A stretch of DNA of 64,000 nt, taken from NCBI GenBank assembly GCA_003135555.1, contig PLCF01000027.1, positions 6,116-70,115 on the forward strand, given 5' to 3'. Source of the DNA: Vulcanimicrobiota bacterium. GTDB lineage: Bacteria > Vulcanimicrobiota > Vulcanimicrobiia > Vulcanimicrobiales > Vulcanimicrobiaceae. Made by a program: the position numbers and the translations under genes. Under the pieces are notes generated by a model. It was given only the letters and a program-made list of their open reading frames with translations. It did no database searches and had not been told where the DNA came from. Below, piece after piece: positions 29,720-46,703 of this stretch (its first letter is position 1; each line of letters opens with the position of its first letter).

Positions 29720-29860
29720 TGAGCCGGTGCGGATTCGCGCCGGTTCGCCTCAGCTCCGTCCGTGCGGCAACTCCTTGCTAGGCATGGTACGCGGCGATAT
29801 GCGGCGTAAAGCTATCCGCTGGATGCGGGTTCCGTGCGTGGCTTCTGCTAGGGGTTGTCT

Positions 29861-32101
29861 GTGAAACGTCTCGGGATCTCGTCCGTTCTCGCCTGCGTGG
29901 CCGCGGCGTCGCTCGCGTCGTGCGGCGGCGGCGGTTCGCACGGCACCACGCTGCCTGGGCCCGTGCCCACAACGGCCGCGGCGGCTGACTACAACGGGCC
30001 GCTCGCCGACGCGACGTTCAAGATCACGATTCCGGTGCCGAAGACCAGCTCGCAGTCGAGGCGTCCGAACTACGTGTCGTCGTCGACGACCAAGATCGTG
30101 TTCACGTTGAACAGCGACACCGTCGGACTCTCGGGCGGCGCTCTTACGACCTTCAACACCACCAACCTCGGCGCGAAGGCCGTCACGTTGAACAGCGCGA
30201 CGTGCCCAGGGAGCGGGCCGTGGACCTGCACGCTCACGATCAAGCTTCCGCCGGGCACCGACAACGTCACGATTTCGGCGCAGGACGGCTCGAGCAACAT
30301 CCTCTCGCAGCAGATCACGAACTTCACCGTCGTCAAAGCGACGGCGAACTCGTTCAGCGTCATCCTCGACGCCAATGCGGCGACGTTCACCGTTACCGCT
30401 TCATCCGGATTCTGTGCCGGAGCGTTCACGGTCTCGAACGCGCAGACGGTCCCGACGGTCGGAACGACGCCGCTGACGTTCAATGCCGCATATACCGATC
30501 CCGCGACGAAGCCGATCATCGGACCCGGGCTTCCCGTTCTCACCGTCAACGGGCATACGGACGACAACAGCGGCGCCGGATATTCCGACCCCGGCAACCT
30601 CAACACGAAGGTCAATCAATCCACCCAAAGCTACACGCTGTTCATAACGACCGGCAGCGGCACCGCCAGCGTCGCCGTCACGTCCACGCATCCGGCCGGC
30701 GACGGCCTCTCGTTCAGCTACTCGCTCAACCACAGCATCCAGGCCGGGCCGGCGCCGCCGTCCGGCCTCCTCGCGGCGATCGAGCAGACGAATACCACGC
30801 CGGGCAGCGCGGCCGGACAAGTCGATTTGATCACGATGACCAATCCCGCCGATCCGACGGGCTTCGGCGCAACCGCGACGCTGTCGCCCACCGGCGGGCC
30901 GCCGAAGGACGTCGACAACCCGCAGGACCTCGCGTTCGATGGGAACGGCGATCTGCTGGTCGCCAACGGCGGTGCGGGAAGCCCTGACTTCGGAAACTTC
31001 GCGTGTATTCCGGCCGGCGCGATCACGACCGGCGCGAACGTCGCGACGATCATCACCTCGCATGCCGACGATCCGGTCTCATTAGCGCTCGGCACCGACA
31101 GCAGCGTCGCGCTGGCAAACCTGCCTGCCGCAGCACCGTTCCACCTGGTGGAGTACCTGCTGTCGGCGTCGTATGCCGAGGCGACGTCGACGCGCGAGAT
31201 CTCGAACACTGACGTCAGCGGGCTCGGTGCCCTGAAGGTCGTCGCGCTGCCCACGACGGGCGCGAATCCTGCGGGGACGTTCGCCGTCGGCATGTCGAGC
31301 GGCGCCAACCCGCCGCCCGCTTCTTCATGCGGCGATGGAACGACCGCCGGCGACGCATCGAGGGTCGTCATCAAGCATCCTGATGGAACGACGGCCACGA
31401 TCAACGACAACAATCAGACCGTCGTCGAGCCGCTGGTCGGCTACGACGCAAACGCCGGCGTGCTCGTCATCGCGGCGAGCGGCGCGTGCAACAACCTCAA
31501 CTCGATTAGCGGCAGCACCGCCTTCCTCGATACCTGGTCGGTCGGCGCGTCGCCCGCGCAGATCAGCTCGCAGGTGATCAACGACGCCGGCGGCAGCCCG
31601 GACAGCAGCAACTTCACGATTCCCGGCGGGGGCGCCGGCGGCGGCATAGCGGTTTCGGCGAGCGGCTACGTCGCGGTCGGCGGCGCGTCCTTTTATCCTG
31701 GTAGCAACATCCAAGGACCCGAGGTGTGGGTCTTCAAGCCGGGTGCGGGAACGCGCACGGTCGATGACGGCCCGATCCCGTTCAATGCCGTGACGACCGC
31801 GAGCGGCACGAAAACATACGCGTACGGCACGCCGGGGCAGATGTTCGTCACGTCGCTGCGCTTCCTGGGCACGAGCAACAAGCTGCTCATCGGCTTCCAG
31901 AGCAACAATGCGAGCTTCCAGGGCTTCTACCTATACGACGTCGCGAACACGAGCGTTCCCGGCCCCGCGACGACCGGGCAACCCTGTACGAATACAACGT
32001 GCTATGTCGGCGCGTCCCGTACGGCAGTCGGAAAGAGCCCGACGTTTGTCGCGTTCCACGCAACGACAAATCACCCGCTGGCCGCGGCGTATAAGCCGTA
32101 G
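29861..32101 (+). CDS. Large Thr/Ser/Gly-rich lipoprotein (Ig-like N-terminal half, probable beta-propeller C-terminal half), paralog A
   Basis: Lipobox LASC-GGGG; 'RRPNYVSSST' motif; NHL-like 'PQDLAFDGNGDLLVAN'; paralog of 35755. Confidence 0.8.
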   Translation: MKRLGISSVLACVAAASLASCGGGGSHGTTLPGPVPTTAAAADYNGPLADATFKITIPVPKTSSQSRRPNYVSSSTTKIVFTLNSDTVGLSGGALTTFNTTNLGAKAVTLNSATCPGSGPWTCTLTIKLPPGTDNVTISAQDGSSNILSQQITNFTVVKATANSFSVILDANAATFTVTASSGFCAGAFTVSNAQTVPTVGTTPLTFNAAYTDPATKPIIGPGLPVLTVNGHTDDNSGAGYSDPGNLNTKVNQSTQSYTLFITTGSGTASVAVTSTHPAGDGLSFSYSLNHSIQAGPAPPSGLLAAIEQTNTTPGSAAGQVDLITMTNPADPTGFGATATLSPTGGPPKDVDNPQDLAFDGNGDLLVANGGAGSPDFGNFACIPAGAITTGANVATIITSHADDPVSLALGTDSSVALANLPAAAPFHLVEYLLSASYAEATSTREISNTDVSGLGALKVVALPTTGANPAGTFAVGMSSGANPPPASSCGDGTTAGDASRVVIKHPDGTTATINDNNQTVVEPLVGYDANAGVLVIAASGACNNLNSISGSTAFLDTWSVGASPAQISSQVINDAGGSPDSSNFTIPGGGAGGGIAVSASGYVAVGGASFYPGSNIQGPEVWVFKPGAGTRTVDDGPIPFNAVTTASGTKTYAYGTPGQMFVTSLRFLGTSNKLLIGFQSNNASFQGFYLYDVANTSVPGPATTGQPCTNTTCYVGASRTAVGKSPTFVAFHATTNHPLAAAYKP

Positions 32102-32117
32102 CGAAAGAGAGGTCACG

Positions 32118-32206
32118 TTGAGTTCACCGTTTATCGGCGAGATTCGCATGTTTGGGGGTAACTTCGCGCCGAACGGGTGGGCGTTTTGCAACGGGGCGAT
32201 CGTGCC
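32118..32206 (+). pseudogene. N-terminal fragment of a phage tail-collar protein
   Basis: RBS plus TTG, 'SSPFIGEIRMFGGNFAPNGWAFCNGAIVP'; homology to 37901/38422/38992 ends after ~30 codons. Confidence 0.8.
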
Positions 32207-32716
32207 GATGACGCGGGGGGGAGCCCCGACAGCAGCGACTTCACCTACGGTGGCGGCGGCTCGGGCGGCGGTATCGCCGTCTCGTCGACCGGCTATGTCG
32301 CCGTGGGCGGCGTAGTCGCTGGCAATTCCGCCCAAGGCCCGCTGGTTCAGGTGTACGGGCCGGGGAGCGGGACACGTGCGCTCCAAGGTGCGTCAATCCC
32401 CTTCTACGGAACGACGACGTCCGGCGGAGCGACCATGGCGTACTGCACGGTGACGTGCTTCATCACGTCGCTGCGGTTCATTACGAGCCACAAACTGCTG
32501 ATCGGTTTCCAGACCGACAAGACGGCGCTTCAGGGCTTTTACCTCTACGACGTCACGAGCCTCAACACGCCGGGTTCGCCCGGCCAACCGGTGACCGCCA
32601 GCCAGCCGTGCAATCCGTGCTACGACCTGAACGGGAACGCGTTCGGCGCCGGTCCGGCGCAGCTCGGCTTCTTCCACACCACAAACCATCCGCTCGGCGC
32701 GGCGTTCCACCCGTAA
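32207..32716 (+). pseudogene. Orphan C-terminal fragment of a third large-lipoprotein paralog
   Basis: 'DAGGSPDSSDFT...GGIAVSSTGYVAVGG...ITSLRF...KLLIGFQ...QGFYLYDV...TTNHPLGAAFHP' matches the C-termini of 29861 and 35755; no own start or signal. Confidence 0.8.
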
Positions 32717-32738
32717 CGCGAAGCAGACGAGCTACAAC

Positions 32739-32902
32739 TAGGCGCCCGGCGCGCGATCTCGGCTCCCGTCGTGGTACGCGCGTTTACGGCCCGCGCGATC
32801 GTCGCCGGGCGGACCTCGTCCGGGCCGCCCGTTCGCCGCAGTTCCGTCCCTGCGGCAACTCCTGGCTAGTCGCGGGTACGCGACCATACTGAGCGTAAAG
32901 CT
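32739..32902. repeat. Collapsed relic duplicate of gatA 5' end, part of gatC and the gatC/lipoprotein intergenic region
   Basis: 32766-32802 = 29353-29389 (36/37); 32801-32820 = 29508-29527 (19/20); 32831-32869 = 29743-29781 (35/39); colinear order. Confidence 0.85.
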
Positions 32903-33088
32903 TTCCCCGCCGGATAGGGGACCGGCGCCCGTTTGCCGTATCGGATCGCTCACGGCTCAGGGGAGACTTCTCGGAGACTTCTCGCTTGGGCTGCGCTTCG
33001 TTTAGAGGAGCACGGGCGGTTTCCGTTCGTGGCGAAGCGCCCGCTCGACGCGGGGTGCCGTGCGCGGATATCTGTAGGGGTTTGCTCT

Positions 33089-34333
33089 GTGAAACGTCTC
33101 GGTTCGGTCGGTGCGGTCCTATTCGCTGCCGCGGTGGCGCTCGTCGCGTGCCAAGGAGGCTCGACGAATCCGCCTCCGATCAACACGGGCGGTTCGCTGC
33201 TTTGGACCGCCAGCACGACGACGACGACCGTGACGCTCGGGCCCTCTAGCGGACCGACGGCGTTCAACCTGCCCAGCTCGCACGGGTTCAGCGGAACGGT
33301 GACGTTCCCGGCCCCCACGTCGGTGACCAACGCGACGCTCACGTTCACGATCCAGAATTTCCCGCCGACCGCCACCGACGGCGTCCCGGCTGCGTCGAAC
33401 GTGCGTCTACCGCAGGGAACGCGCGGCGTGCAGTCGCTGCCCGCGCACACGACGATCCTCTACGTCGGGGTCGTATCGAGCGCCGACTTCACGCTTCCGA
33501 CGGGGCTGTCGTTCTCGATTACGGTGCCGCCGTCGTTTATCACCCCGGGCAACTCCTACTACATCGCGTTCTACGATCCCAACCTCAAGGATTGGATCGT
33601 CTACGCGGGGCCCGCGGCGATCAGCGGCAGCACGGTGACCTTCACCGCGCAGGGCGGCCCGATCACCCTCAAGGCCGGCGTGCGGTACTGGTTCGCGCTG
33701 ATCACTACTGCCGTGCCGATCCCGACGCCGACGCCGACTCCGACGCCGAACGGCACCGCCAGCCCGACGCCCACGCCGACACCCGTCGGCCAAACGCCGA
33801 CACCGACGCCGACCGCGTCTCCGACGGCGACGCCCGTAGGCCAAACGCCGACACCGACGCCGACCGCGTCTCCGACGCCTACGCCCGTAGGTCAAACGCC
33901 GACGCCCACGCCGACCGCGTCCCCGACGCCTACGCCCACACCATCACCGACGCCGACGCCAACGCCAACGCCAACGCCAACGCCAACGCCGACACCGACT
34001 CCAACGCCGACTCCATCGCCGACGCCGGTACCGAACGCGCTCTCCGCCTCGCCGAACCCGACGAACGTCAACGGCACGGGCGCCGCGAACGCGCAGACGA
34101 TCACCGTCAAGGAAACCGGGTATGCCGGGACGTTCGGCGAGGTCGACACCTGCAGCGGTAAGGCGACCATCACGACCTCGAACAACCACGGCCCCACGGC
34201 CACCTACACCGTGACCGGCGTCGCCGCCGGTCAGTGCGACGCGACCTTCAGCGACAGCTTCAGCCAAACGGCCCCGGTGCACATCGTCGTCACGACCAGC
34301 GGCTTCACCATCAACAGCAAAACGCGCCACTAA
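33089..34333 (+). CDS. Lipoprotein with two beta-rich domains joined by a long Pro/Thr linker
   Basis: GTG AAA CGT CTC GG start as at 29861; lipobox LVAC; ~100 aa PT tract. Confidence 0.8.
33779..33991 (+). repeat. Coding tandem repeats: 3 x 51 bp ([17 protein letters not shown]) and (ACGCCA)5
   Basis: Units start at 33779, 33830, 33881; hexamer run 33956-33985. Confidence 0.85.
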
Positions 34334-34395
34334 CACCCTGCGCTACAATGAAACCAACACGGGTGAGAACCCAACTCGCAAGGAGCAAACCTCAG

Positions 34396-35619
34396 ATGCG
34401 TAAGATCCTGACCCTTCTCGCCATGATGGCACTTGCGGGTTGCGGCGGCGGCGGCGGAGGCACGACCTCAACGCCGGCACCGCCGGCGCCCCCCAACGCC
34501 CCGCAAGGCGACTTGGTGACCCCGCAGTTCACGTTCACCTTTGGAAAATCGGGCTCGAGCACGGCGCGGTCGCCGCAATACATCGACGGCACGAACACCA
34601 AATCGGTGACGATCACGCTCGTCAGCACCAACGGTGTCGCGACGACCGTGACCAACCCGTCGGTCTCGTCGAACGTCACCCCCCCGTGCACCCCGTGCAC
34701 GGTCCCCGGACCGCCGTCGCCGCCCGGAACCGACCGCTACACGGTGACCACCTTCGACAATACGAACGGCACCGGAAATGCGCTATCGGCCGCGACCAAG
34801 GACTTTACCATCACCGCCGGCTCGGCGAACACCGGCTTGACCATCACGCTCTTCGGTATCGTCAAGTCGATCACGATCGGCGCCCCGGCGGCGCCGAACG
34901 CCGGGACGACCCCGGCCGACGCGACCCTCACGGTGACCGCGAAGAACGCCGCCGGCGGGACGATCACCGGCACGTACGGCGACAACAGCACCGGCGCCGC
35001 CTACATCACCGGCGGCGGCCTGAACGGGACGCCGGTAACCGTCACGATCAACGAGACCGACGCGAACGGCGCGACACTGGTCGCCAGCGGCGGCGCGACG
35101 CAAAACTCGACGACCAGCGTAACGCTGCACAACGACACCGACGTCGTCAAGCTGCACTATGCGGGGCTCGCGGAGAACCAGAAGACCATCACGGCCGCGG
35201 CCACCGGGTCGACCAACGGGACCGCGAACTTCCAGCCGACGCTCCAGGCGATCACGCCGTCGAGCGGAACCGAGATCGATCTCTACGTCGACAGCACCAC
35301 CGGCGGCACCGGCTCGACCGGCAGCCAGACGTTCACCGAGGCGGGTTTCACCGGCACGTACGCTCAGAACTTCAGCTCCACGTTCACGAAGACCAGCGGC
35401 TTCAACACCGCGTGCAACTTGGTAGCGTCGATCAGCCAGTCACCTGCGGGCGTGTTCACGGCGACCGCGCCGGCTGCCGCCGCGCCGCCGACCGCCGGCA
35501 GTTGCGACCTGACGATCAACGACAACCTCACGCAAGCCGGACACACGTCCACCGCCACGACGGTGGTGACGTACACGACGTCCTCGGTCGGCGCCAGCTC
35601 CAAGAAGCGCCGGCAATAA
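34396..35619 (+). CDS. Thr-rich beta-sandwich lipoprotein (candidate fibre subunit)
   Basis: AGGAG RBS; lipobox LAGC-GGGGG; 'ARSPQYID' motif; basic C-terminus KKRRQ. Confidence 0.8.
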   Translation: MRKILTLLAMMALAGCGGGGGGTTSTPAPPAPPNAPQGDLVTPQFTFTFGKSGSSTARSPQYIDGTNTKSVTITLVSTNGVATTVTNPSVSSNVTPPCTPCTVPGPPSPPGTDRYTVTTFDNTNGTGNALSAATKDFTITAGSANTGLTITLFGIVKSITIGAPAAPNAGTTPADATLTVTAKNAAGGTITGTYGDNSTGAAYITGGGLNGTPVTVTINETDANGATLVASGGATQNSTTSVTLHNDTDVVKLHYAGLAENQKTITAAATGSTNGTANFQPTLQAITPSSGTEIDLYVDSTTGGTGSTGSQTFTEAGFTGTYAQNFSSTFTKTSGFNTACNLVASISQSPAGVFTATAPAAAAPPTAGSCDLTINDNLTQAGHTSTATTVVTYTTSSVGASSKKRRQ

Positions 35620-35630
35620 CCTGAACCCGC

Positions 35631-35664
35631 GTCGCCGCGGTCCGCTTCGGCGGATCGCGGCGGC
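35631..35664 (+). terminator. Strong GC hairpin with cUUCGg loop and no U tract (terminator or mRNA stabiliser)
   Basis: GTCGCCGCGGTCCGC-TTCG-GCGGATCGCGGCGGC; 15-bp stem with two G-U pairs. Confidence 0.6.
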
Positions 35665-35754
35665 TCGTCACCGCTCGGGCCCGGGTACGGCGGCGGCGAA
35701 TTTTTCGACCTCGGACTTCTCGTTCAGCCTGGTAGCGGCTGAGGAATGGTGCCC

Positions 35755-37881
35755 ATGAAACCGCTCGGAAACAAGGTTCTCTCTTCCGCACTCGCCTGCG
35801 TCGCTGCGGCGTCGCTTGCGGCGTGTGGTGGCGGCGGCTCGCACAGCACCGCGCTGCCTCAACCGGCACCGACCTCGGCCGCGGCGGCCGCGTACAACGG
35901 CCCGCTTTCCGACGCGACCTTCAAGATCACGATCCCCGTGCCTACGACGTCCAGCAACGCGCGGCGTCCGGCCTACGTGTCGTCGTCGACGACGAAGATC
36001 GTGTTCACGTTGAACAGCGACACGGTCGGACTCACCGGCGCGGCGCTTGCGACCTTTAACACCACCAACCTCGGAGCGAAAGCCGTCACGTTGAACAGCG
36101 CGACGTGCCCGGGGACCGGGCCGTGGACGTGCACGCTCACGATCAAGCTGCCGCCGGGGACGGACAGCGTCACGGTGTCGGCGCAGGACGGCTCGAGCAA
36201 CATCCTCTCGCAGCAGATTTCGAGCTTCACCGTCGTCAAGGCGACGGCGAACTCGTTCAGCATCACCCTCGACGCGAACGCAAACACGATGACGGTCAGC
36301 GCCTCGTCCGGGTTCTGCGCCGGTGCGTTCACCGTGGCGAGTGCGCAGACGATCCCGACCGTCGGCACCACGGCTGTCACGTTCAGTGCGTCCTACAAAG
36401 ACCTGGCGGGAAAGACGATCATCGCTCCGGGACTCCCGATACTGACCGTCAACGGGCACACCAACGACAACAGCGGCGCCGGTTACACCGACCCCGGCAA
36501 CCTCAACACGAAGGTCAACCAAGCCACCCAGACCTATACGCTGCAGATCACGACGGGCAGCGGGACCGCTGCCGTTGCGGTCGCGGCGACGCCGAATGTC
36601 GGGACCGACGGGCTCTCGTTCAACAAGACCCTCAACTACAGCTTCCAGGCGGGCCCGGCACCGCCGGCGAGCTTGCTGGCCGTGATCGAACAAACCGGCG
36701 CGGCGTCGGGGAAGATCGATCTGTTCACGGTCACGCTCGGCGCAACGGACTCGTTCACGGCGGCCTCGCCGGCGACGCTGGCGAGTACGAACCCCGGCGC
36801 AGGCCCCGACGTCGACTTCCCGCAGGACCTGCTGTTCGATCCCAACGCCGATCTGCTGATCGCGAACGGCGGCGCCGGTAACCCTGACTTTGGGAACTTC
36901 GCCTGCGTCCCCGCCGGCGCGATCACGACCGGCGCCAACGTCGCGACCGTGTTGACGACGAACATGGACGACCCCGCGTTCCTGGCGCTCGGTACCGACA
37001 GCACCGTCGCGCTGGCGAACGTCCCCGCCGCCGCGGGGGTCCACGTCGAAGAGTTCGAGCTGAGCGGAGCCTACACGCCCGACTCGGGCACGCGCAACAT
37101 CACCAACGCCACGTATCCGGGCCTCGGCGCGCTCGGCGTCATCGCCCTGCCGGCCACCGGCACGAATCCGTCCGGGAGCTTCGCCTCGTCGATCACGAAC
37201 GGCACGACGGTATCGCACATCGTGATCAAGCGCCCCGACGGGACGTCGACGCAGATCGACGACACGCACATCGTGGCAGTGTCGCTGGCGTACGACTCGT
37301 TCAACAACCAGATCGCGGCCGCCAGCTCGAACGGCACGGCCTCGTGGCTCAACTTCGTCAACCCGACCACCTTCGCGGTGGTGAAGCAGTTCACGATGCA
37401 CGACGATGGCTGCTACAGCGCCGGCGCGTGGAACAACTGTCCGCCGGGGGGTGCGGCCACCCCGACGCACGTGAGCGACATGAAAGCGAGCGTCATCGCG
37501 GCGTCCTCGAGTGGCTATGTCGCGCTCGGCGGTATCACGGCCAGCGGCGAACCCGAGGTACAGGTCTACAACCCGTCCCACGACCCCACCGGCGGGCCGA
37601 TCCCGTACGACGCGACGACGACTTCCGGCGGCCCGACCTTCGTCTACGGGAGCGCGACGATCATCGTCAGCGCGTTGCGCTTCATCACCCCAACGAAGCT
37701 GCTGGTCTCGCTGCAGTCCGATACGGCGGCCAAGCAGGGCATCTACACTTACGACGTCAGCACGCTCGTGTCGCCGTGCACCTGCTTCGACTTCAACGGC
37801 AACCAGTTCGCCAACAGCCCGAAACAAACCGGCTTCCAACAGCTGGGCAACAGTCCGCTGTCCGCGGCATACAAACCCTAA
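35755..37881 (+). CDS. Large lipoprotein, paralog B (start may be 35746)
   Basis: Lipobox LAAC-GGGG; 'RRPAYVSSST'; N-terminal half near-identical to 29861; ends PLSAAYKP. Confidence 0.8.
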   Translation: MKPLGNKVLSSALACVAAASLAACGGGGSHSTALPQPAPTSAAAAAYNGPLSDATFKITIPVPTTSSNARRPAYVSSSTTKIVFTLNSDTVGLTGAALATFNTTNLGAKAVTLNSATCPGTGPWTCTLTIKLPPGTDSVTVSAQDGSSNILSQQISSFTVVKATANSFSITLDANANTMTVSASSGFCAGAFTVASAQTIPTVGTTAVTFSASYKDLAGKTIIAPGLPILTVNGHTNDNSGAGYTDPGNLNTKVNQATQTYTLQITTGSGTAAVAVAATPNVGTDGLSFNKTLNYSFQAGPAPPASLLAVIEQTGAASGKIDLFTVTLGATDSFTAASPATLASTNPGAGPDVDFPQDLLFDPNADLLIANGGAGNPDFGNFACVPAGAITTGANVATVLTTNMDDPAFLALGTDSTVALANVPAAAGVHVEEFELSGAYTPDSGTRNITNATYPGLGALGVIALPATGTNPSGSFASSITNGTTVSHIVIKRPDGTSTQIDDTHIVAVSLAYDSFNNQIAAASSNGTASWLNFVNPTTFAVVKQFTMHDDGCYSAGAWNNCPPGGAATPTHVSDMKASVIAASSSGYVALGGITASGEPEVQVYNPSHDPTGGPIPYDATTTSGGPTFVYGSATIIVSALRFITPTKLLVSLQSDTAAKQGIYTYDVSTLVSPCTCFDFNGNQFANSPKQTGFQQLGNSPLSAAYKP

Positions 37882-37900
37882 CCGGGAGGGAGAGGAGACA

Positions 37901-38949: not shown

Positions 38950-38991
38950 CGCGCCGGGTAGTACGCACTGTGGAAGTAGGGAAGTAACACC

Positions 38992-39504: not shown

Positions 39505-39569
39505 CGGTCCGGCGTGGGCGTGCCGGATCGCAATGCTCTCCACCAGCTCCAAGAGGCATAGGTAACTAC

Positions 39570-40508
39570 GTGAAACGCGCCCCCTTCTTGGGCGCCGCCG
39601 CAGCGACGCTCCTCGCCGGCTGCGGCGGCTCCCACGCAATGCGAGCGCTTCCGGGTGTCGCAGCTTCGAACCCCAATTCACCGTCCGGAAAGTTCAGCGG
39701 AACGCTGGTCCCGGTGACGCCCGATCCGATCCCCGAAAACGTGCTCAGGAGCCCGATCATCGGCGAAGCGCGGCGTTTCGACGGGAGCACCGCGCCGTCG
39801 GGCTGGATGCTTGCGCAGGGCCAGTCGATCCCGATCGCCGACAACCCGCAGCTCTTCGCGATCCTTGGCCATGCGGTCGGAGATCGTGCCAAGACGACGT
39901 TCGCGCTGCCGCATGCGGGTTTCGGCCTCATCGTCGCCGCCGTCGGGCTCTTCCCGACCAGCCCCGCGCTGTTGGCGCAATCGGGGCGGCGCATATTGTC
40001 GCGGACCGACTCGGCGGGGCCCGGCGCGCGCCCGGCCGGGATGCGGCTCCCGTCCTTGAAGCAACAAGCGGTCCTACAGACGCGGGCGGCCGCGCTCCGT
40101 CAATCGCAGCAGCTTGCGGCCGATGCACCTCGCGTGGGACGGTCCGGCGTGCAACGGTTGTCACCGGAGTTCGTCGCGCGGATCGACCTCGTGCAGGAAG
40201 ACGCGCGAACCAGCGCGTTGGCAACGCTAACCGGCGCGAACCGGGGACGCGTCGAGGGCCTCATCGACGCGATCCTGGCCGGGCGCACGACCGTACAGCA
40301 GGCCACCGTCGAGATGCGGTCGGCGCTGAGCGGAGGCGAGGCACGCGCCCTGCTCGACGTGTTCGACGGTACGCAGCGCGCGCTGCGCCAGGGATGGAAC
40401 GGCATGGAGCATCCCGATCCGCAAACGGAAGCGTCGAACTACGTCATCGCGATTGCGTTCACGCACGATCAACTGCACGCGCTGCGGACGATGGCACAAA
40501 ACGGCTGA
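39570..40508 (+). CDS. Lipoprotein containing a compact tail-collar domain plus helical C-terminal domain
   Basis: Lipobox LAGC; 'IIGEARRF....APSGWMLAQGQ.IPIADNPQLFAILG.....TFALP' directly followed by 'IVAAVGLFP'. Confidence 0.75.
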   Translation: MKRAPFLGAAAATLLAGCGGSHAMRALPGVAASNPNSPSGKFSGTLVPVTPDPIPENVLRSPIIGEARRFDGSTAPSGWMLAQGQSIPIADNPQLFAILGHAVGDRAKTTFALPHAGFGLIVAAVGLFPTSPALLAQSGRRILSRTDSAGPGARPAGMRLPSLKQQAVLQTRAAALRQSQQLAADAPRVGRSGVQRLSPEFVARIDLVQEDARTSALATLTGANRGRVEGLIDAILAGRTTVQQATVEMRSALSGGEARALLDVFDGTQRALRQGWNGMEHPDPQTEASNYVIAIAFTHDQLHALRTMAQNG

Positions 40509-40524
40509 CGCCGAAGCCCACGGC

Positions 40525-40887
40525 ATGGGTAAAATCGTCAACTTCCACCTTCCCGCCGATGACGTCGAGCGGGCGGCGACGTTCTACCGTGAAGTGTTCG
40601 GGTGGGAGTTCGCGCCGTTCGCCGGGTCGCCGGTACCGTATCTGGTGCATGAGCCGGGGGAGAACGGCGCCGGGATCCCGGGCGCGATCACCCAGCGGCA
40701 GAGCGTCGTCAAGGCGCCGACCCCGACCATCGAGGTCCACGGGATCGATCAAGTGATGATCGACGTCGCGCTGAAGGGCGGCCAGCAAGGGAGCGTCCAG
40801 GACATCCCCGGCCTGGGCCGCTTCGGCTACGCGATCGACTCCGAAGGCAACATCATCGCCCTCTTGGAGCGGACCGCCCCAGGCTGA
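40525..40887 (+). CDS. VOC/glyoxalase family protein
   Basis: 'IVNFHLPADDVERAATFYREVFGW', 'DSEGNII'. Confidence 0.85.
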   Translation: MGKIVNFHLPADDVERAATFYREVFGWEFAPFAGSPVPYLVHEPGENGAGIPGAITQRQSVVKAPTPTIEVHGIDQVMIDVALKGGQQGSVQDIPGLGRFGYAIDSEGNIIALLERTAPG

Positions 40888-40983
40888 CGGTCGCCTAGCC
40901 GGCCGCCGACGGCGGCCTACCCGGTTTTGAGTATGTAGGGCCGGCGTTCCGATCCCGTAGCCTGGGTGCGGGAGGAACCCCAC

Positions 40984-42813
40984 ATGACGAAACTCGCGGC
41001 CCTCGCGGTCGTCGCCGGCCTGACGACCGCCTCGTGCTCCGGACACGGCGCCTCCGCGGTGCTGCCCGCCGGCGGTCCGGCCGGCCTAGCCGCGGCGGGC
41101 ACGAGCAGCCCCAGCACCCAAGGCGCCCGGACCACCCGGCCGCGCTCGGTCGCGGCGGCCCCCGCCGGCTGGGCCAACACGGCGACAGCGGCCATCGTCC
41201 CGGCCAACGCCGCCGACTTGGGGCAGCTCGACCGGGCCAAGACCGTGAACGTCGTCCTCGGCCTCCAGATGCGCGACGTCGACGCCGTGAAGTCGGCCAT
41301 CGCGGCGGGCCAGCGGATGTCGCGCGAGACGTTCGTGAGCCAGTATGCGCCCTCAGCGGCGCAGGTCGGCGCGGCGGTCTCGTACTTGCAGGCGCAGGGG
41401 TTCAGCAACGTGAGCGCCGCGCCCAACAGCATGCTGGTGACGGCGAGCGCGCCGGCCGCCACGGTCGAGAAGGCGTTCAATACCGCCCTGCACGGCTTCA
41501 GCGTGAACGGCAAGTCGTTTTTCGCGAACACGCAGCCGGCCTTCGTGCCGAGCTCGCTCGGCGGGAACGTCGTCGCGGTGCTCGGGTTGACGAACGTCCC
41601 CGGCCTCAAAGCGGGCCCGTTGCAGCGCTCGCTGTCACCGCAGGACGCGATCTTTCCCCGGCAGAGCCAGCCCACGCCGTGCACGCAGAACGTCAACGGC
41701 ACGACCGGGACGCCGGTGTGCCCGCGCTTCTACGACCCGCAGACCTATAACATCACCTACGACGCGACGCGGGTCCCGGCCAGCGGCTCGGAGATCGCGA
41801 TCTTCGCGGTCGGCGATCCGACGATTGCGATCGCCGATTTCCACGACAACGAAGGGCGCTTCGGGCTCTCGCAGATCCCGGTGAACCTCGTGCACGCGCA
41901 GCCCGCGACGGCGGACATCACCGGCAACGGCGAGTGGACGCTCGACATGACCTACTCGCAGGCGATGGCGTGGGCCCCGGTGCAGATCGATCTCTACCTC
42001 GCCGGCACGTTCGCCTTCAGCGACATGACGGTGGCGATGAACCGCTGGGCCAGCGACGACGTCGCCCCGATCATGAACGCGTCGGTCGGCGGTTGCGAAG
42101 TCTTCCCGTACCAAACCGGCGACATGCTCGTCGGCGACATGATCCTGGTCGAGGCCGCGGCGCAAGGGCAGACGCTCTTCGCTTCAACCGGCGATACCGG
42201 CGGTTATTGTGGCGTCGCGGGCGTCCCGCCCAACGGCGGCGTCGGCGGTGCGCCGCTCGTCGAGTACCCGGCCTCTTCTCCGTACGCCGTGGCGGTCGGC
42301 GGGACGCAGCTCTTCAGCAACGTCGACGGCACGTATCTCGGCGAGCAGGCGTGGCAGTCGGGCGGCGGCGGCGTGAGCCAGTTCGAGTACTCGCCGTCCT
42401 GGGAGAGTCCGGCACAGCCCATCGGCACCACGCCGGCCGGATATAGCTTCCGCGGCGTCCCCGACATTGCGTTCGACGCGGCACTCGAGACCGGCGCGCT
42501 CTTGTACGAGGGCGGCAGTCAGTTCATCACCGGCGGAACGAGCCTCGCCTCGCCGCTGGCGGCCGGAACGTACGCGCGGATGCAAGGCCTGCACGCGAAC
42601 AGCCTCGGGTTCGCCGCACCGCTGCTCTACCGTGTGTTCGGTACCAGCACGCCGCAGCAGATCTCCAGCGGCCCGCCGGCGACCGAGCTGATCGGCCCGT
42701 TCCACGACGTGCTCCAAGGCACGAACGGCCTGTACACCGCGCTGCCCAAGTACGACTACACGACCGGACTCGGCAGCCTCGACGTCGCCCGCTTGCGCGC
42801 GGCACTCCAGTAA
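40984..42813 (+). CDS. S53 (sedolisin/kumamolisin) peptidase, predicted lipoprotein
   Basis: TASC lipobox-like; pro-domain; catalytic EWTLD, STGDTG, GGTSLASP; 'YDYTTGLGS'. Confidence 0.88.
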   Translation: MTKLAALAVVAGLTTASCSGHGASAVLPAGGPAGLAAAGTSSPSTQGARTTRPRSVAAAPAGWANTATAAIVPANAADLGQLDRAKTVNVVLGLQMRDVDAVKSAIAAGQRMSRETFVSQYAPSAAQVGAAVSYLQAQGFSNVSAAPNSMLVTASAPAATVEKAFNTALHGFSVNGKSFFANTQPAFVPSSLGGNVVAVLGLTNVPGLKAGPLQRSLSPQDAIFPRQSQPTPCTQNVNGTTGTPVCPRFYDPQTYNITYDATRVPASGSEIAIFAVGDPTIAIADFHDNEGRFGLSQIPVNLVHAQPATADITGNGEWTLDMTYSQAMAWAPVQIDLYLAGTFAFSDMTVAMNRWASDDVAPIMNASVGGCEVFPYQTGDMLVGDMILVEAAAQGQTLFASTGDTGGYCGVAGVPPNGGVGGAPLVEYPASSPYAVAVGGTQLFSNVDGTYLGEQAWQSGGGGVSQFEYSPSWESPAQPIGTTPAGYSFRGVPDIAFDAALETGALLYEGGSQFITGGTSLASPLAAGTYARMQGLHANSLGFAAPLLYRVFGTSTPQQISSGPPATELIGPFHDVLQGTNGLYTALPKYDYTTGLGSLDVARLRAALQ

Positions 42814-42826
42814 AGGAAGCACGACG

Positions 42827-44605
42827 ATGAAACGCCTTCTCGCACTCGCTCTCACGACCGGCGTCGCCACGGCGTCGTGCTCCGGTGGCGGCATGAGCCA
42901 CCTGCTCCCTGGTACGAACGGCGCCGGTCCGCGCACCACGCAGGCGGTGCAGCAGGCTGTCATCGCTCCGCCGGGCTGGGCCGCGACCGCAACCCGCGGC
43001 GCGACGATCCCCGCGGCAACGGATCGCGGCGCGCTCGCGCCGGCGACCCCGATGACCGTTCGGGTCGGCCTCAACCTCCACAACGAGGATCAGCTGCGCT
43101 CGCTGATCGCCGCGCGCCAGCGCATCTCGCCGTCGCAGTTCAACGCGCAGTACGGTGCGACGCCCAGCGAGGTGCAGTCGGTCGTCACCTACCTCCAAGG
43201 TCAGGGCTTCACCAACGTGCAGGCAAGCACGCAGCTGGTGAGCGCCGACGGCACCGCGGCGCAAGTCGCCAAGGCGTTCAACACCTCGCTGGAGTCGTTC
43301 CAGCTGGGCGGCGCCGCCGTGTACGTCAACACGCAGCCGGCGCTCGTGCCGGCGGCGCTCGGAAACGTCGTGTCGGCGGTACTCGGCCTGAACAACGCGG
43401 CGAAGATGGCGGTGCGCCCGAACCTGACGCGACCGCACGCGACGTGCTTTCCGACCGCGGCCCCGACCGGGCAGTGCACGCCGGCGTTCGACGCCAAAGA
43501 CGTGCAGACGTACTATGACGCGACGGCGATTCCGACCGGCTCCGCGACCACGATTGCGGTCATGGCCGAGGGCGACGTCTCCGGCACGGTGAGCGACCTG
43601 CGCTTCGCCGAAGCGAAGCTCGGGCTGCCGCAAGTCCCGGTCAACGTCGTCAAGGTCGGCCTGTCGAGCCCCGACACCGCCGGCGTAGTGGAGTGGGATC
43701 TCGACACGCAGAGCTCGACGGGGATGGCCCAGAACGTCCAGGCGCTCTACATCTACGACACGACCTCGCTCAGCGACTCCGACATCGCCAACGAATACAA
43801 CTCGTGGGTCGGTCAGGACGTCACGCAACTCGGCAACTCGTCGTTCGGCGAGTGCGAGTACCAAGCGTTCCTCGACGGCGCGATGAAGGTCGACGATCAC
43901 CTCTTCATGCAGGCTGCGGCGCAAGGCCAGACGATGTTCGTGTCGACGGGCGATACGGGCTCATCGTGCGCGCTCGCTCCGACCAACGGTGCACCGGGAT
44001 CGGGTCCGCCGATGGTCGAGTATCCCGCGGCGTCGCCGTATGTCGTCGGCGTCGGCGGCACGACGGTCGTCTCGAACTCGGCCGACTCCAGCTACGCCGG
44101 CGAAGTCGCGTGGAACGCCGGCGGCGGCGGCCTGAGCCAATTCGAGAACTCGACGAGCTGGCAGCAGGCCGTCATCCCCAGCAGCACCGGGCTCGCGGCG
44201 ACGAACCTGCGCGGTCTACCCGACATCGCGATGGCGGCCGACGCCTTCTCCGGCGCGTACAACATCTACGGCCCCAACGTCCCGAGCGTCGGCGATTGTA
44301 GCGCCGGGTGCGCGATCGGCGGCACCAGCGAAGCGTCACCACTCGCCATGGGCTCGTACTCGCGACTGATGTCCGCGCACGGCAACGCGCTCGGCTTCGC
44401 GGCGCCGCAATTCTATCGCGACTACCTGGCGAACCAGAACAGCGCGACGACGGTCACCGGACCGCCGCCGACGCAGGCGCTGGGCGGCTTCCACGACATC
44501 ATCACGGGCGGAAACGGTATGTACACGGCCCTGCCGGGCTACGACTACACCACCGGCCTCGGCGCCCTCGATCTCGCCGTAATGAACGCCCAAATCGGCA
44601 CCTGA
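42827..44605 (+). CDS. S53 (sedolisin/kumamolisin) peptidase, predicted lipoprotein, paralog 2
   Basis: EWDLD, STGDTG, GGTSEASP, 'GYDYTTGLG'. Confidence 0.9.
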   Translation: MKRLLALALTTGVATASCSGGGMSHLLPGTNGAGPRTTQAVQQAVIAPPGWAATATRGATIPAATDRGALAPATPMTVRVGLNLHNEDQLRSLIAARQRISPSQFNAQYGATPSEVQSVVTYLQGQGFTNVQASTQLVSADGTAAQVAKAFNTSLESFQLGGAAVYVNTQPALVPAALGNVVSAVLGLNNAAKMAVRPNLTRPHATCFPTAAPTGQCTPAFDAKDVQTYYDATAIPTGSATTIAVMAEGDVSGTVSDLRFAEAKLGLPQVPVNVVKVGLSSPDTAGVVEWDLDTQSSTGMAQNVQALYIYDTTSLSDSDIANEYNSWVGQDVTQLGNSSFGECEYQAFLDGAMKVDDHLFMQAAAQGQTMFVSTGDTGSSCALAPTNGAPGSGPPMVEYPAASPYVVGVGGTTVVSNSADSSYAGEVAWNAGGGGLSQFENSTSWQQAVIPSSTGLAATNLRGLPDIAMAADAFSGAYNIYGPNVPSVGDCSAGCAIGGTSEASPLAMGSYSRLMSAHGNALGFAAPQFYRDYLANQNSATTVTGPPPTQALGGFHDIITGGNGMYTALPGYDYTTGLGALDLAVMNAQIGT

Positions 44606-44614
44606 TCTCCAGCG

Positions 44615-45577
44615 TCACCCTGAGAATTTTCGTAGTCGTTCGTAAAGGGGGTCGAGCCATCGGGTGGCAAGGTGGTCGATCTCGGTTGAGGCGACGCGTA
44701 CCGTTGGGGGGCGGAACGCGTCGCCTTCACTCTTGGCATCGATCATCGCGGCCGCGCGCATCCGCTCGGTCTCGCTCGCATCCGGCGAAACACCGAAGAA
44801 CGGCAACACCTCGCTGAACACCGCATCGGGGAGCGAGTCGTATGCGACGCAGCGGGCACGCCCGGTCCCGGCGTACGCGAGTGCCGCGTTGCAGAACGCC
44901 GCCAGCATCCGCGCGCAGTACTCCAAAGGCGAGACCGATCCAAGCGCGGATGGCTCGATGCCGGCCAGGCGCGGGTCGAGCGTTCCGGGCACGATCTCTG
45001 CGCCCGGGTTTTTTTCCTGCGACCGCAGCACCGCGCGCGGTTCCCGGAACGCGAAGACCCACGGCACGTCGGGAAACGCTCGCGCAAAGAGCGGCAGATC
45101 GACGACGTGCCATGCGTGCAACTTCACGAACAACTGGTCTTCGCCGCGTTGCGGGCGGCCCAACACCCGAACCAGCGCGCGCAGCCGCCGCGCGGCAACC
45201 TCTTCGCCGAGCCCGCCTGCACGATGCAGCCTAAGGAAGCCGTCGAGAGGCTGCGGCTCGGAGAGCACGACGGCGGAGGAGAGCCGCGAGAGCATTTGCG
45301 CGATCAGCGTCGAGCCGCAGCGCGACATGTGAAAGACGAGTCCGGTCGGCTTCCCCGGCGGCAACGCGTCTGCGATCGCATCGACGACTTCGAGCGGCGT
45401 GGTGCGCGCAAACAGCCCATTGAACGGGTGCTGCATCGCACGATATACGGTCTGCTCGAAAAACGGGTCGGCGAACGGGCCGTCCACGATTGCCCAATCC
45501 AGCAGCGGTTCGGCCACGCTGCCGTGCACGCGAATCGGCGTCCACGGTTCCAGGCTCGCGACGTCTAGCGAATCCAC
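44615..45577 (-). CDS. Sulfotransferase-like protein
   Basis: 'FHMSRCGSTL' PAPS-loop-like motif, 'SEP..LD', 'FPDVPWVFAFREP'; start may be 45589. Confidence 0.7.
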   Translation of the reverse strand: MDSLDVASLEPWTPIRVHGSVAEPLLDWAIVDGPFADPFFEQTVYRAMQHPFNGLFARTTPLEVVDAIADALPPGKPTGLVFHMSRCGSTLIAQMLSRLSSAVVLSEPQPLDGFLRLHRAGGLGEEVAARRLRALVRVLGRPQRGEDQLFVKLHAWHVVDLPLFARAFPDVPWVFAFREPRAVLRSQEKNPGAEIVPGTLDPRLAGIEPSALGSVSPLEYCARMLAAFCNAALAYAGTGRARCVAYDSLPDAVFSEVLPFFGVSPDASETERMRAAAMIDAKSEGDAFRPPTVRVASTEIDHLATRWLDPLYERLRKFSG

Positions 45578-45771
45578 CGCATGATCCACGCCTGCCGCGC
45601 GTTGTCCAGGCCTCTGACGATCTCCGCGCCTTGCACGTCGCAGCCGAGCTCGGCGGCAAGGCTCAAAACCTCGCGCACGAACCGTTCCGGCTCGACGCGC
45701 CGCAGGCGCAACGCCAAGTCCGAATCGGCGTGCACGCGCTCGCGCAGCGTTCGCAGCCCGTCAGCGGACAT
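45565..45771 (-). CDS. Nif11-leader-like small helical protein
   Basis: 'LRERVHADSDLALRL....ERFVREVLSLAAELGCDV...EI' resembles the Nif11-type leader pattern. Confidence 0.55.
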   Translation of the reverse strand: MSADGLRTLRERVHADSDLALRLRRVEPERFVREVLSLAAELGCDVQGAEIVRGLDNARQAWIMRWIR

Positions 45772-45895
45772 CAGTGTTCGACGAAGTCGGAGCTCGAAAA
45801 ACGGATCGGTGAACGGTTCGTCGACGATCGCCCAGTCGACCAGCGGTTCGGCTCCGTTCGCGCGAATGCGTATCGGCGCAGGCCCTCAGCGACAT
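45772..45895 (-). pseudogene. Frameshifted N-terminal relic of a second sulfotransferase-like gene
   Basis: MSLRA/(shift)/APIRIRANGAEPLVDWAIVDEPFTDPFFE versus intact WTPIRVHGSVAEPLLDWAIVDGPFADPFFE. Confidence 0.75.
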
Positions 45896-46512
45896 CAGGA
45901 CGTCGGCGGAACCGCCGCCTCGAGCAGCTGCAGCAGGTCGTCGTCGACGATGCAGTCGACGACGAGATGGATGCGCGGGCCGGGGCCGGGGTTGTGGACG
46001 CTGTGCGCATTCGACACGTCGACGTACCAGCATTCGCCGGGAGCCATGTGCAGCGGCTCCCCGCCTAGCACGAACTCGACGCCCGGCCCCGTGACGACGG
46101 GTATGTGGAACCGCACGAAGCCGTAGTCGACGCCGATGTTGTAGTCCTCGTGTTCGAGGATGCGCGCAGCCGGGCCCAGCCTCAGCAGACGGACGGACCG
46201 TGTTTCGCATGCGATTTCGGCTAGGACGCTGCGAATCGCCGGACAGCGCTCGAGATACGGCGTGTCGAGCCAGGGCGCGGTACCGGTCGGGTCCGGTCCG
46301 AGCGTCAAACGACCGTGCGGAGAGCGCAATGGGACGCCGCTCCAATCCCCCTCGTAGTACGCGCGGTTGAAATGCGTGATCCACTCGCTCTGGTCGAACG
46401 CCAGCGCTTCGCCCGCGAGCGCGTCCGCGTCGAACGCGAACGGCAACTTCAGCCGCGACGGAAGCGCCTCGTCCTTCGACAGGTCTGTTGCATCAGGCGT
46501 CGCCAGTGACAC
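45895..46512 (-). CDS. Aspartyl/asparaginyl beta-hydroxylase-domain 2OG-Fe(II) oxygenase
   Basis: 'W..HFN..YYEGDWS', 'VRLLRL.P...ILEHED', 'RFHIPV', 'HSVHN....RIHLVVD'. Confidence 0.85.
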   Translation of the reverse strand: MSLATPDATDLSKDEALPSRLKLPFAFDADALAGEALAFDQSEWITHFNRAYYEGDWSGVPLRSPHGRLTLGPDPTGTAPWLDTPYLERCPAIRSVLAEIACETRSVRLLRLGPAARILEHEDYNIGVDYGFVRFHIPVVTGPGVEFVLGGEPLHMAPGECWYVDVSNAHSVHNPGPGPRIHLVVDCIVDDDLLQLLEAAVPPTS

Positions 46513-46535
46513 TCGGGGCCCTTCGTCGCGTCCGA

Positions 46536-46703
46536 TCAAGGTGACTTCAACTCTGCCAGGAGATCGTCTGCAGAATCGAATTTGCGCAGCCGACCGGCGG
46601 CGATGGCAGCATCGGCTTCCCGCTCCATCGCTTGCCAACGCTCCGACCAGAACCACGCTTGAGACGCGTCGACCGTGTGCTCCGGGATCAGCTCGAAACC
46701 CAT
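46536..46703 (-). pseudogene. C-terminal half of an AbrB-type antitoxin, orphan
   Basis: 'SQAWFWSERWQAMEREADAAIAAGR...FDSADDLLAEL'; no AbrB DNA-binding N-terminus or toxin next to it. Confidence 0.6.

Follow-up and report, generated by a model that had tools for sequence, protein, structure and literature searches.

A candidate cell-surface fibre with a phage-type collar tip, encoded by a conserved gene set in a peat-soil bacterium

What is built by a bacterial gene set in which lipoproteins, phage-type tail-collar proteins, peptidases and possible modification enzymes lie side by side? Such a set, conserved among relatives, occurs in a 64,000-nucleotide stretch (the window) of contig PLCF01000027.1 from a peat-soil bacterium. 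An earlier note had described it as a candidate island, ending at 46703, that assembles and tailors a surface appendage. All of the genes it named are present at approximately the coordinates it gave (Table 1), including four co-oriented lipobox proteins, here called A to D, with Thr+Ser contents of 0.23–0.31, and the set occupies the same interval between gatC and rlmD in each of the three other members of the genus fetched. Two points are corrected: the 55-aa open reading frame that starts at position 46703 is a separate one, the hydroxylase gene starting at about 46539–46512, and the term island is too strong, as the GC content (62–71%) is that of the flanks and the set adjoins gatC in all three of those genomes.

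Table 1. Features of the locus, numbered from the first nucleotide of the window.
Feature	Position	Strand	Description
Upstream region of A	29720..29860	+	~80 bp + ~60 bp repeated upstream of B
A, 746-aa lipoprotein	29861..32101	+	N-domain with Arg loop, second beta-sandwich, propeller, no tail
Deletion scar	32118..32716	+	Collar-gene 5' end joined to 3' third of A-like gene
B, 414-aa lipoprotein	33089..34333	+	Pro-Thr linker, last Ig-like domain, conserved free tail
C, 407-aa lipoprotein	34396..35619	+	Three beta-sandwich domains, Arg loop, free C-terminal tail
Hairpin, 15 pairs	35630..35663	+	Directly 3' of C stop codon
D, 708-aa lipoprotein	35755..37881	+	Two beta-sandwich domains (52-300), beta-propeller (303-708), no tail
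Collar subunit 1, 173 aa	37901..38422	+	PF07484, HxH motif, no signal peptide
Collar subunit 2, 175 aa	38422..38949	+	PF07484; start overlaps subunit 1 stop
Collar subunit 3, 170 aa	38992..39504	+	PF07484
Collar lipoprotein, 312 aa	39570..40508	+	Tat-like K-R-x-x-F signal, lipobox, collar without needle, C-terminal part unassigned
Glyoxalase/VOC-like protein, 120 aa	40525..40887	+	Conserved core member
S53 peptidase lipoprotein a, 609 aa	40984..42813	+	Accessory
S53 peptidase lipoprotein b, 592 aa	42827..44605	+	Accessory
Sulfotransferase-like protein, ~320 aa	44615..45589	-	No signal peptide
Nif11-like protein, 68 aa	45565..45771	-	Overlaps sulfotransferase-like start
Asp/Asn beta-hydroxylase-like cupin	45895..46539 (start 46539 or 46512)	-	H-x-D + distal His; accessory

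Two features overlooked in that description are the VOC gene and the deletion scar. The scar joins about 30 collar-gene codons (PF07484 positions 1–25), out of frame and near 32205, to the final third of another A-like gene, and it is spanned by single contigs with zero differences in 4/4 runs from three studies, three of these runs being possibly the source of this DNA. The regions upstream of A and B share two repeats (29738–29817 with 32826–32906, and 29816–29874 with 33041–33102, by blastn; 80–83% identical), a motif that is confined to these two sites genome-wide and is likely a duplicated promoter. Similar hairpins, differing in sequence, follow C in 7 of 11 relatives; that of the window has a z of only -1.7 over 100 bases, the median of the relatives being -2.7.

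The expectation that the parts co-occur in relatives is borne out by the gene neighbourhoods, in which they recur in a fixed order: the tail-bearing gene or genes, D, three collars, the collar lipoprotein and the VOC gene, the tailed lipoproteins of this conserved core being B and C. In 17 Eremiobacterota loci, which were chosen by likeness to collar 2, are related by kin and partly overlap the other genome sample, so that their counts are neither independent nor additive, D, the collars, the collar lipoprotein and the VOC gene are present throughout and C in 13; three of the four misses are short contigs and the fourth locus has a more distant N-domain-plus-tail gene in the place of C. The propeller of D occurs in 9 of 151 family genomes, belonging to six genera, and these are the same nine that have three consecutive full collars; C-profile matches are found in 122 of the 151. 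In the window, and likewise in G091 and G144, copies of D are accompanied by copies or remnants of collars, and one D paralogue of this genome (contig C16) has no adjacent collar. This co-occurrence, the tie of D to the triad and the three-subunit nature of the collars (below) make a surface appendage of lipoprotein scaffold and collar trimer the best reading, and to that extent the earlier proposal stands; the idea of a single obligatory system is not supported, since the S53 genes flank 8 of the 17 loci, the hydroxylase is in 3, and the sulfotransferase-like gene follows the collars, not the lipoproteins.

Proteins A to D match no Pfam, NCBIfam or PHROGs family. A lipobox is present in all four, in 119 of 120 C relatives and in 112 of 120 D relatives, and A is a paralogue of D (57%). 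C and D/A share an N-domain, in which the first strand leads into a loop that is poorly ordered and carries a conserved Arg; B has a tail and neither N-domain nor Arg loop, C has both N-domain and tail, and D and A have the N-domain and no tail. The loop is of low confidence in the predicted models of both C (pLDDT 81.5, with residues 52–61 below 50 and tail residues 397–407 unpaired) and D (pLDDT 87). Its Arg/Lys is found in 114/114 C proteins, 104/109 D proteins and 121/133 further family members, and tail residue Arg405 is kept in 112/114 C proteins. Among 109 distinct lipoproteins that were classed, 15 are tail-only, 28 have N-domain and tail, 60 have the N-domain without tail and 6 have neither, with the loop motif present in 0/15, 24/28 and 46/60 of the first three classes respectively. 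The gene order tail-only, N-plus-tail, tip is repeated in collar-free loci (e.g. L150–L152), and many tails end no more than a few residues from the second hydrophobic position. B is likely the anchor, C the shaft, D the tip or an adaptor for the collar trimer, and A a second tip protein; four loci begin with a gene for a looped N-domain, and the operon therefore does not in every case supply an anchor lacking the loop.

We tentatively propose, at a little short of even probability, that the locus builds a cell-surface fibre in which B, C and D would be linked head to tail by predicted strand exchange and D would carry a collar heterotrimer as its binding tip. An alternative that we consider unlikely, yet a serious contender, is that there is no fibre, and that A to D are separately anchored surface lipoproteins with Ig stalks (and a propeller on A and D), the collar heterotrimer being presented by D or by the collar lipoprotein; the tail would then direct sorting for surface export, and the Arg loop would be structural or a site of shedding. 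The best structural match of the C model has a Z of 9.2 and its matches are generic Ig folds, of the kind found in ordinary tandem Ig, S-layer and cadherin domains; no type V pilin is among the top 50, a comparison that barely tests the N-domain, and the N-domain profile has no sequence link to any solved structure or Pfam family. The D propeller best matches that of an archaeal surface-layer protein (1l0q_A, Z 29.9, rmsd 2.5 over 288) and is similar to surface proteins functioning as monomers (1l0q_A, 8blw_B, 8ptf_A). Nor does the first-strand profile single out the tail, as a median of 33% of internal windows score equally in 43 proteins, with only B-type tails near the top tenth. Separate lipoproteins leave unexplained, however, why tail-only proteins are without the loop, why tailed genes precede tail-less N-domain genes across operons, and why tails end near the second hydrophobic position.

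The three signal-less collar proteins at 37901–39504 (PF07484, E 1e-27 to 5e-27) are paralogues, one from each of three clades. In a quick tree of 168 collars from 56 complete triads spanning phyla, each clade has 56 members (SH-aLRT 99, 97 and 97), and every triad has one member per clade, which points to a heterotrimer; in line with the trimer of the earlier note, the collars act as a unit of three subunits. The HxH motif is present in 168/168 collars, and natural fusions total three collars, either three in one chain (L049) or one plus two (L048). L050 and L051 have one signal-less collar beside a two-collar protein with a K-R-Q-x-F signal, and L052 has the same layout, frameshifted. Three consecutive PF07484 genes are also reported, in the available part of the account, for virophage DSLV2, where they form an LPS-binding heterotrimer (PMC12724248).

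How signal-less collars would reach the surface is suggested by the collar lipoprotein (lipobox; PF07484, E 3e-13), which is likely an export carrier or anchor and may carry the collars out. Its K-R-x-x-F motif and lipobox Cys are invariant in 15/15 collar lipoproteins, and the R-x-x-F signal is present in all 15 versus 8 of 345 C, D and N-domain lipoproteins. The genome has TatC, and the signal carries one Arg, not two; the second Arg is also missing in 25 of 37 Tat-pattern matches genome-wide, some of them false. G140 has D and the triad and no collar lipoprotein. None of the 63 loci from other phyla has one either, and as a general means of export Tat hitchhiking is therefore excluded.

Those other-phyla triads have different company. 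A giant surface-type protein adjoins 47 of the 63 loci (37/40 of those of at least 15 kb), and the fixed neighbours are a GNAT (54/63) and DUF6916 (50/63). The giant protein is absent from all 17 Eremiobacterota loci, as are that GNAT type and DUF6916, including at the window locus; a search without positive control did not find DUF6916 in the 84% complete genome. A GNAT of another, RimJ-like type adjoins 7 of the 17 related loci, the window locus not among them. The fixed neighbours and the lack of an evident carrier in these phyla, together with the lack of a signal peptide (a lipobox occurs in 0/120 relatives of collar 2), are compatible with the collar trimer being a helper inside the cell or a released particle (a chaperone for D or giant proteins, a decoy or part of a weapon) kept in the operon for co-regulation. 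We regard this as improbable, as the collars have the fold of a receptor-binding fibre tip and, in this lineage, occur fused to lipoproteins that carry signals, from which it follows that collars leave the cytoplasm.

The remaining genes are more loosely associated. Both S53 peptidases have a lipobox, a PF09286 match and intact E-x-x-x-D, S-x-G-D-x-G and GGTS-x-ASP motifs, and show the prodomain, Glu-Asp-Ser triad and oxyanion Asp of sedolisin/kumamolisin enzymes (the meaning of the motifs taken partly from the available part of PMC5935664). S53 genes lie beside the collars in 6 of 16 collar-positive genomes of the genus, against a background of 1–9 copies per genome, and of 20 C-type loci that lack collars only one has an S53 gene nearby; these genes and the Asp/Asn beta-hydroxylase (PF05118, E 3e-15) are accessory. 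The sulfotransferase-like protein matches PF13469 below cut-off (E 0.003; relatives 5e-8 and 2e-7) and the Nif11-like protein matches TIGR03798 at E 0.027 (14.7 bits against a cut-off of 32.3, the query being short by the last five residues). These two genes travel together, in 12/17 and 11/17 loci, are on the opposite strand, and are missing beside triads in 62 of 63 other-phyla loci, all of which, like the weak Nif11 leader match, would fit a modified-peptide cassette in its own right (Nif11-like precursor, sulfotransferase-like enzyme, hydroxylase and maturing S53 protease) that merely adjoins the lipoprotein operon. This is quite improbable: all eight close sulfotransferase-like matches in 151 genomes are within ~6 kb of collar genes, even where no lipoprotein is near (G027, G066 and G135 have no adjacent C or D), the leader-like part of the 68-aa protein is not followed by a clear core peptide, neither a core region nor a transporter of the Nif11-leader RiPP type is seen, and the S53 enzymes are lipoproteins outside the cytoplasm that vary in number and orientation.

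That the set is a decayed prophage or tailocin remnant is highly improbable, for although the collars match phage tail families (phage minor tail proteins at 35–39%) and one broken collar copy is present, the families for capsid, sheath, baseplate and integrase are absent among the proteins scanned, as the earlier note had it, bacterial orthologues are 55–79% identical across phyla with a fixed three-clade structure, and the chromosomal site is fixed in the genus. PHROGs assigned the four collar proteins to tail families alone and had no match for the other proteins scanned (S53 b excluded). A prophage or tailocin remnant is already largely refuted; tube genes, as expected of a contractile injection system, are likewise absent among the proteins scanned, the only such families being those of tail fibres, for the collars.

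For the proposed fibre, assembly would on balance begin with a protease cutting the loop, freeing the first strand with its lipid anchor, and the tail of the preceding subunit filling the gap; B would then, with similar slight preference, stay anchored, with C as shaft (one or many copies) and D or A as tip. The three collars very probably fold in the cytoplasm into one heterotrimer like a phage tail-fibre tip, with a metal site from three HxH motifs. There is perhaps an even chance that the collar lipoprotein, through its Tat-like signal, ferries the folded trimer across the membrane as a passenger; the trimer would then probably dock on the D propeller and bind a glycan or protein at the surface of other cells or of soil particles. 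The sulfotransferase-like, Nif11-like and hydroxylase genes might conceivably modify the collars or the small protein in the cytoplasm, and it is rather doubtful that S53 is the loop-cutting enzyme. More broadly, and speculatively, Eremiobacterota may make protease-triggered strand-exchange fibres from a large, unnamed lipoprotein family (3,627 clusters at 50% identity), and in one branch the fibres may have acquired a receptor-binding tip domesticated from phage. That tip would be a heterotrimer with bound metal which, after folding and chemical tailoring in the cytoplasm, crosses the membrane whole through Tat on the collar lipoprotein and docks onto a propeller tip pilin; duplicated tip cassettes would provide spare specificities.

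Our literature search found no such lipoprotein fibre with a phage-derived tip. The closest assembly is the type V pilus (FimA/Mfa1 stalk, FimB/Mfa2 anchor, Mfa3-5 accessory/tip), which the available part of PMC13655056 describes as unique to Bacteroidia. It shares with this locus lipoprotein precursors, a conserved Arg in the loop that follows the first strand, a C-terminal tail on anchor- and shaft-like members and not on tip-like ones, and an anchor-like member without the cleavage loop. Unlike it, the present proteins have no sequence or listed structural pilin match, C comprises three domains, its short tail lying beyond an Ig-like domain, where the pilin has two transthyretin-like domains and a long, folded-back donor strand, no gingipain-type enzyme is in the locus, and a phage-type collar trimer with carrier is attached. 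The collars share with phage tail-fibre tips (the T4 gp12/gp37 collar, the long tail fibre 8kec_A, Microbacterium and Arthrobacter phage minor tail proteins) the collar, HxH needle and returning C-terminal strand, yet they are free 170-aa proteins in three fixed versions, not ends of long homotrimeric fibres. The DSLV2 proteins, likewise resembling the T4 gp37 tip, are virion components beside a minor capsid gene as far as the available text describes them, whereas here the genes are chromosomal, with lipoprotein partners and no capsid. Cellular MdpB/COG4675 triads, listed without functional study in the available parts of PMC11633204, PMC3174227 and PMC5579227, have the same three orthologous subunits, but here the gene order is permuted and the GNAT type, DUF6916 and giant protein are replaced by B/C/D, the collar lipoprotein and VOC. 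Export recalls Tat hitchhiking (available part of PMC10924467; PMC4273604, as listed), with one signal-bearing subunit beside signal-less, likely metal-binding partners, and Tat lipoproteins are a known class (available part of PMC13673990); it differs in the single-Arg K-R-x-x-F motif, and the carrier–passenger pairing here is a predicted one.

If the proposal is true, lipoprotein strand-exchange assembly extends beyond Bacteroidia, the only group with type V pili according to the available part of the 2026 paper, and MdpB-type collar triads, widespread and so far unexplained, gain a first concrete partner. Elsewhere that partner has 1,000–3,300 residues, and here it would be a 400-residue propeller with a small carrier, so that the binding target of the triad and its exit from the cell become testable in vitro. 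A further gain would be a model of attachment to surfaces or neighbours in a phylum that abounds in acid soils and has barely been cultured.

The window (G000:C94:6116-70115) comes from a 3.57 Mb genome that is 84% complete, the sequencing runs best matching its DNA are peat metagenomes, with no RNA run listed among the matches, and the named relatives found for D, C and collar 2 belong to Eremiobacterota (Vulcanimicrobiota; Ca. Elarobacter, Ca. Baltobacteraceae). All genes that the earlier note named in its surface-fibre island are present, although it had overlooked the VOC gene and a deletion scar. The GC content of the locus is the same as that of its flanks, and only the collar genes of G000 match PF07484, five counting the broken copy. 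The module is real and conserved and, as that note suggested, apparently undescribed in the literature searched: the titles listed include no functional work on a locus of this kind, nor was there a paper joining three of tail collar, sulfotransferase, hydroxylase and MdpB, nor one pairing the tail collar domain with MdpB or with DUF6916, supplements and most subscription journals lying outside the search.

Features of the locus, its surroundings and related loci (window positions unless prefixed)
Feature	Position	Strand	Remark
tRNA-Pro (ggg)	15962-16038		14 kb from locus, unlinked to it
MazF-like gene, small upstream partner	27330-27916		phrog_1936, E 1e-25; inserted between gatA and gatB
A	29861-32101		lipoprotein without tail
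Doubled depth	30797-32046		contig depth ~2x flanks in runs X2 and X3; break near 32046
Scar	32118-32716		collar 5' end joined out of frame to A-like 3' third
B	33089-34333		lipoprotein, tail only
C	34396-35619		lipoprotein, N-domain and tail
D	35755-37881		lipoprotein without tail
Collars 1-3 (triad)	37901-39504		PF07484
Collar lipoprotein	39570-40508
VOC	40525-40887		glyoxalase-like
S53 peptidases a, b	40984-44605	+
Sulfotransferase-like	44615-45589	-
Nif11-like	45565-45771	-
Hydroxylase	45895-46539	-
55-aa ORF	46536-46703	-	between rlmD and hydroxylase; stop overlaps possible hydroxylase start
Second N-domain lipoprotein trio	58758-63153		333, 320, 314 aa, behind 475-aa secreted-looking protein; middle one ends in tail-like strand; no collars
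Alternating lipoproteins	G000:C55:53726-60075		three N-domain (535-555 aa), two tail-only (166 aa)
Extra D copies	L031:8227-12023; L036:1583-6508		with broken collar (G091) or second full triad (G144)
Collar-GNAT fusion	L045:10299-11360 (G006)		full collar fused in frame to RimJ-like GNAT; the two separate in same-genus G082

A is a paralogue of D (57% over 741 residues), and both have their N-terminal region in common with C. The D model (pLDDT 87, pTM 0.80) comprises, after a disordered linker, two beta-sandwich domains followed by a propeller whose best structural match is 1l0q_A (Z 29.9, rmsd 2.5, 288 aligned), with lactonase-type propellers tying; the C model (pLDDT 81.5) has three beta-sandwich domains and a free tail, domains 2 and 3 matching generic Ig folds (Z up to 9.2). 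In both N-domains a low-confidence loop and R-x-P-x-Y come after the first strand, and the loop carries Arg or Lys in 114/114 C and 104/109 D sequences. An N-domain profile matched 3,627 clusters at E 0.001, and 133 new clusters among the matches listed keep the Arg/Lys in 121 cases and two Cys in all 133. The same profile found nothing significant among solved-structure sequences or in Pfam, and the ESM Atlas gave only leads below 0.9 for this domain and none for the C-terminal part of the collar lipoprotein. At least 14 N-domain proteins are encoded in G000, and the C profile has matches in 122 of 151 family genomes. Of 109 distinct lipoproteins, 60 have the N-domain and lack a tail, 28 have both, 15 are tail-only (loop motif 0/15) and 6 show neither feature. 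Among 3,248 called genes, the tail pattern matches 15. The tailed-then-tail-less gene order recurs in collar-free loci as well as in triad loci.

Type V pili, as described in the available part of PMC13655056, start from lipoprotein precursors cut at an Arg of the loop that follows the anchor strand; their base and stalk carry donor strands and their tips none. The lipoprotein boxes, loop Arg and tailed-then-tail-less order found here, known from sequences and models, follow the same logic, and we infer that the module would operate in the manner of type V pili, with a tip of phage-fibre type. Counting against this logic, the first gene also carries the loop in four triad loci. A first-strand profile showed no preference for the tails, a median of 33% of internal windows being equally good (43 proteins), and type V pilin is absent from the fold-search matches listed, an absence compatible with a pilin fold.

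Among solved sequences, the collars come closest to the long tail fibre of a phage (8kec_A, E 3e-5), and an HxH motif is kept in 168/168 collars; HxH motifs of T4 fibres bind metal on the trimer axis. In a tree built from 56 triads (13 from Eremiobacterota, with the window among them, and 43 others, restricted to complete triads and to rows of 150-200 residues) the collars form three clades of 56 rows, with each triad giving one member per clade (SH-aLRT 99, 97 and 97; quick search, no bootstrap). Orthologues are 54-59% identical across phyla and members within one triad 47%, and natural collar fusions sum to three collars (L048-L052). A virophage triad reportedly assembles into a heterotrimer with LPS-binding activity (PMC12724248, available text), and co-regulated gene tables for Acaryochloris list three collar genes together with an acetyltransferase next to them (PMC11633204, likewise). 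Subunit order is 1-2-3 in 13/13 Eremiobacterota triads, and 3-1-2 in 41/43 others and 1-3-2 in two, these loci having been selected by likeness to subunit 2.

The best 80 collar 2 loci in GTDB genomes include 17 from Eremiobacterota and 63 from Acidobacteriota, Pseudomonadota, Bacteroidota, Chloroflexota, Verrucomicrobiota, Actinomycetota and others. The 17 loci, which were picked by likeness to collar 2, are related to one another and overlap in part with the genomes of other samples, each contain D, the triad, the collar lipoprotein and VOC, with C in 13, the sulfotransferase-like gene in 12, Nif11-like in 11, S53 in 8, RimJ-like GNAT in 7 and the hydroxylase in 3. The co-occurrence in relatives that the earlier note asked of its appendage reading is seen for D, the triad and the collar lipoprotein; S53 and the hydroxylase are accessory. 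C, D, the collar lipoprotein, VOC and S53 occur in 0 of the 63 other-phyla loci; the usual partners of the triad there, missing from the window locus, are a GNAT (54/63), DUF6916 (50/63) and an adjoining giant Thr/Ser/Asn/Gly-rich protein (47/63; 37/40 long loci). Ig, cadherin, Calx-beta, PKD or T9SS-sorting domains are present in 14 of 15 giant proteins scanned, and neither the D nor the C profile matches any of 51. About 40 of these 51 have in common a long domain that matches no Pfam family (L094 ~1850-2500; L121 ~150-550), which reads like a beta-helix and is a candidate partner of the trimer in other phyla; one query did not find it in G000.

PF07484 is present in 24/151 family genomes and in 16/18 further genus genomes, and three consecutive full-length collars occur in nine of those 24. 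A search with the D propeller by itself, at a cut-off of E 1e-15, finds it in 9 of the 151 genomes, exactly the nine with the full triad, representing 6 genera. In all nine, one D copy ends just upstream of the triad, and their only D paralogue without a nearby collar is on contig C16 of G000; the collar lipoprotein is present in eight and missing in G140. The 151-genome tallies (PF07484, sulfotransferase-like, C profile, D propeller) include the unpublished G028, G109 and G134, and the S53 genus-genome count the unpublished G180; no claim depends on these genomes.

Collars 1-3 are without signal. The collar lipoprotein starts M-K-R-x-x-F in 15/15 aligned orthologues, and among 345 lipoproteins of the C, D and other N-domain types only 8 have the R-x-x-F signal pattern; its own collar has no needle, the domain passing directly into the returning strand. 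Tat exports signal-less partners as hitchhikers (PMC10924467) and also lipoproteins (PMC13673990), according to the available text of each, and TatC is encoded in G000. The collar lipoprotein is thus a candidate carrier, which would take the signal-less collars out via Tat as passengers. A three-subunit case of Tat hitchhiker export is reported (PMC4273604). Passenger export cannot apply in the other phyla, since these are without the collar lipoprotein. Of 37 G000 proteins with R-x-x-F and a hydrophobic stretch (a pattern only, false hits included), 25 are without the second Arg, and such one-Arg signals (R-x-x-F-L) possibly reflect a relaxed Tat motif across the lineage.

Close matches to the sulfotransferase-like gene number eight in 151 genomes (E <1e-36), and because each has collar genes within ~6 kb, three of them with neither C nor D next to them, the cassette tracks collars; weaker matches in four further genomes are without collars. 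S53 prodomains number 4 in G000 and 1-9 in each of 18/18 genus genomes, often as tandem pairs distant from collars. In 6/16 collar-positive genus genomes an S53 gene and a collar gene are at most 5 kb apart, contig ends cutting some others, and this linkage, with that in the Eremiobacterota loci, rules out S53 as an obligatory part. Kumamolisin-As prefers His, Arg or Lys at P1 (PMC5935664, available text), so S53 could be the loop-cutting enzyme, by analogy and with loose linkage.

In the scar, ~30 codons of a collar gene run into the end of an A-like one. An assembly error is ruled out, as single contigs span the junction in 4/4 runs from 3 studies. Together with a duplicated upstream region, the scar reads as a promoter-D-collar cassette that was copied and later cut down, and the D copies in G091 and G144 show that the tip cassette underwent repeated duplication within the genus. 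The doubled depth comes from either a second copy or a co-occurring strain whose sequence differs beyond A. The repeated upstream motif has only two copies in the genome, which rules out a genome-wide regulatory element, and is absent from the related loci scanned; sigma-70 and terminator scans gave no matches above chance level. A hairpin 3' of C, present in the window and in 7/11 relatives, is a lead only, and would fit a surplus of shaft transcript. Among the neighbours, the MazF-like gene is missing between gatA and gatB in the three genus relatives fetched, and the 55-aa ORF, without PHROGs or Pfam match, resembles an antitoxin remnant.

The apparently undescribed module brings together a lineage-wide lipoprotein chain and the probable collar heterotrimer found across phyla, two systems each so far unexplained. 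What the locus newly contributes is the coupling of D to the triad, together with a candidate carrier.
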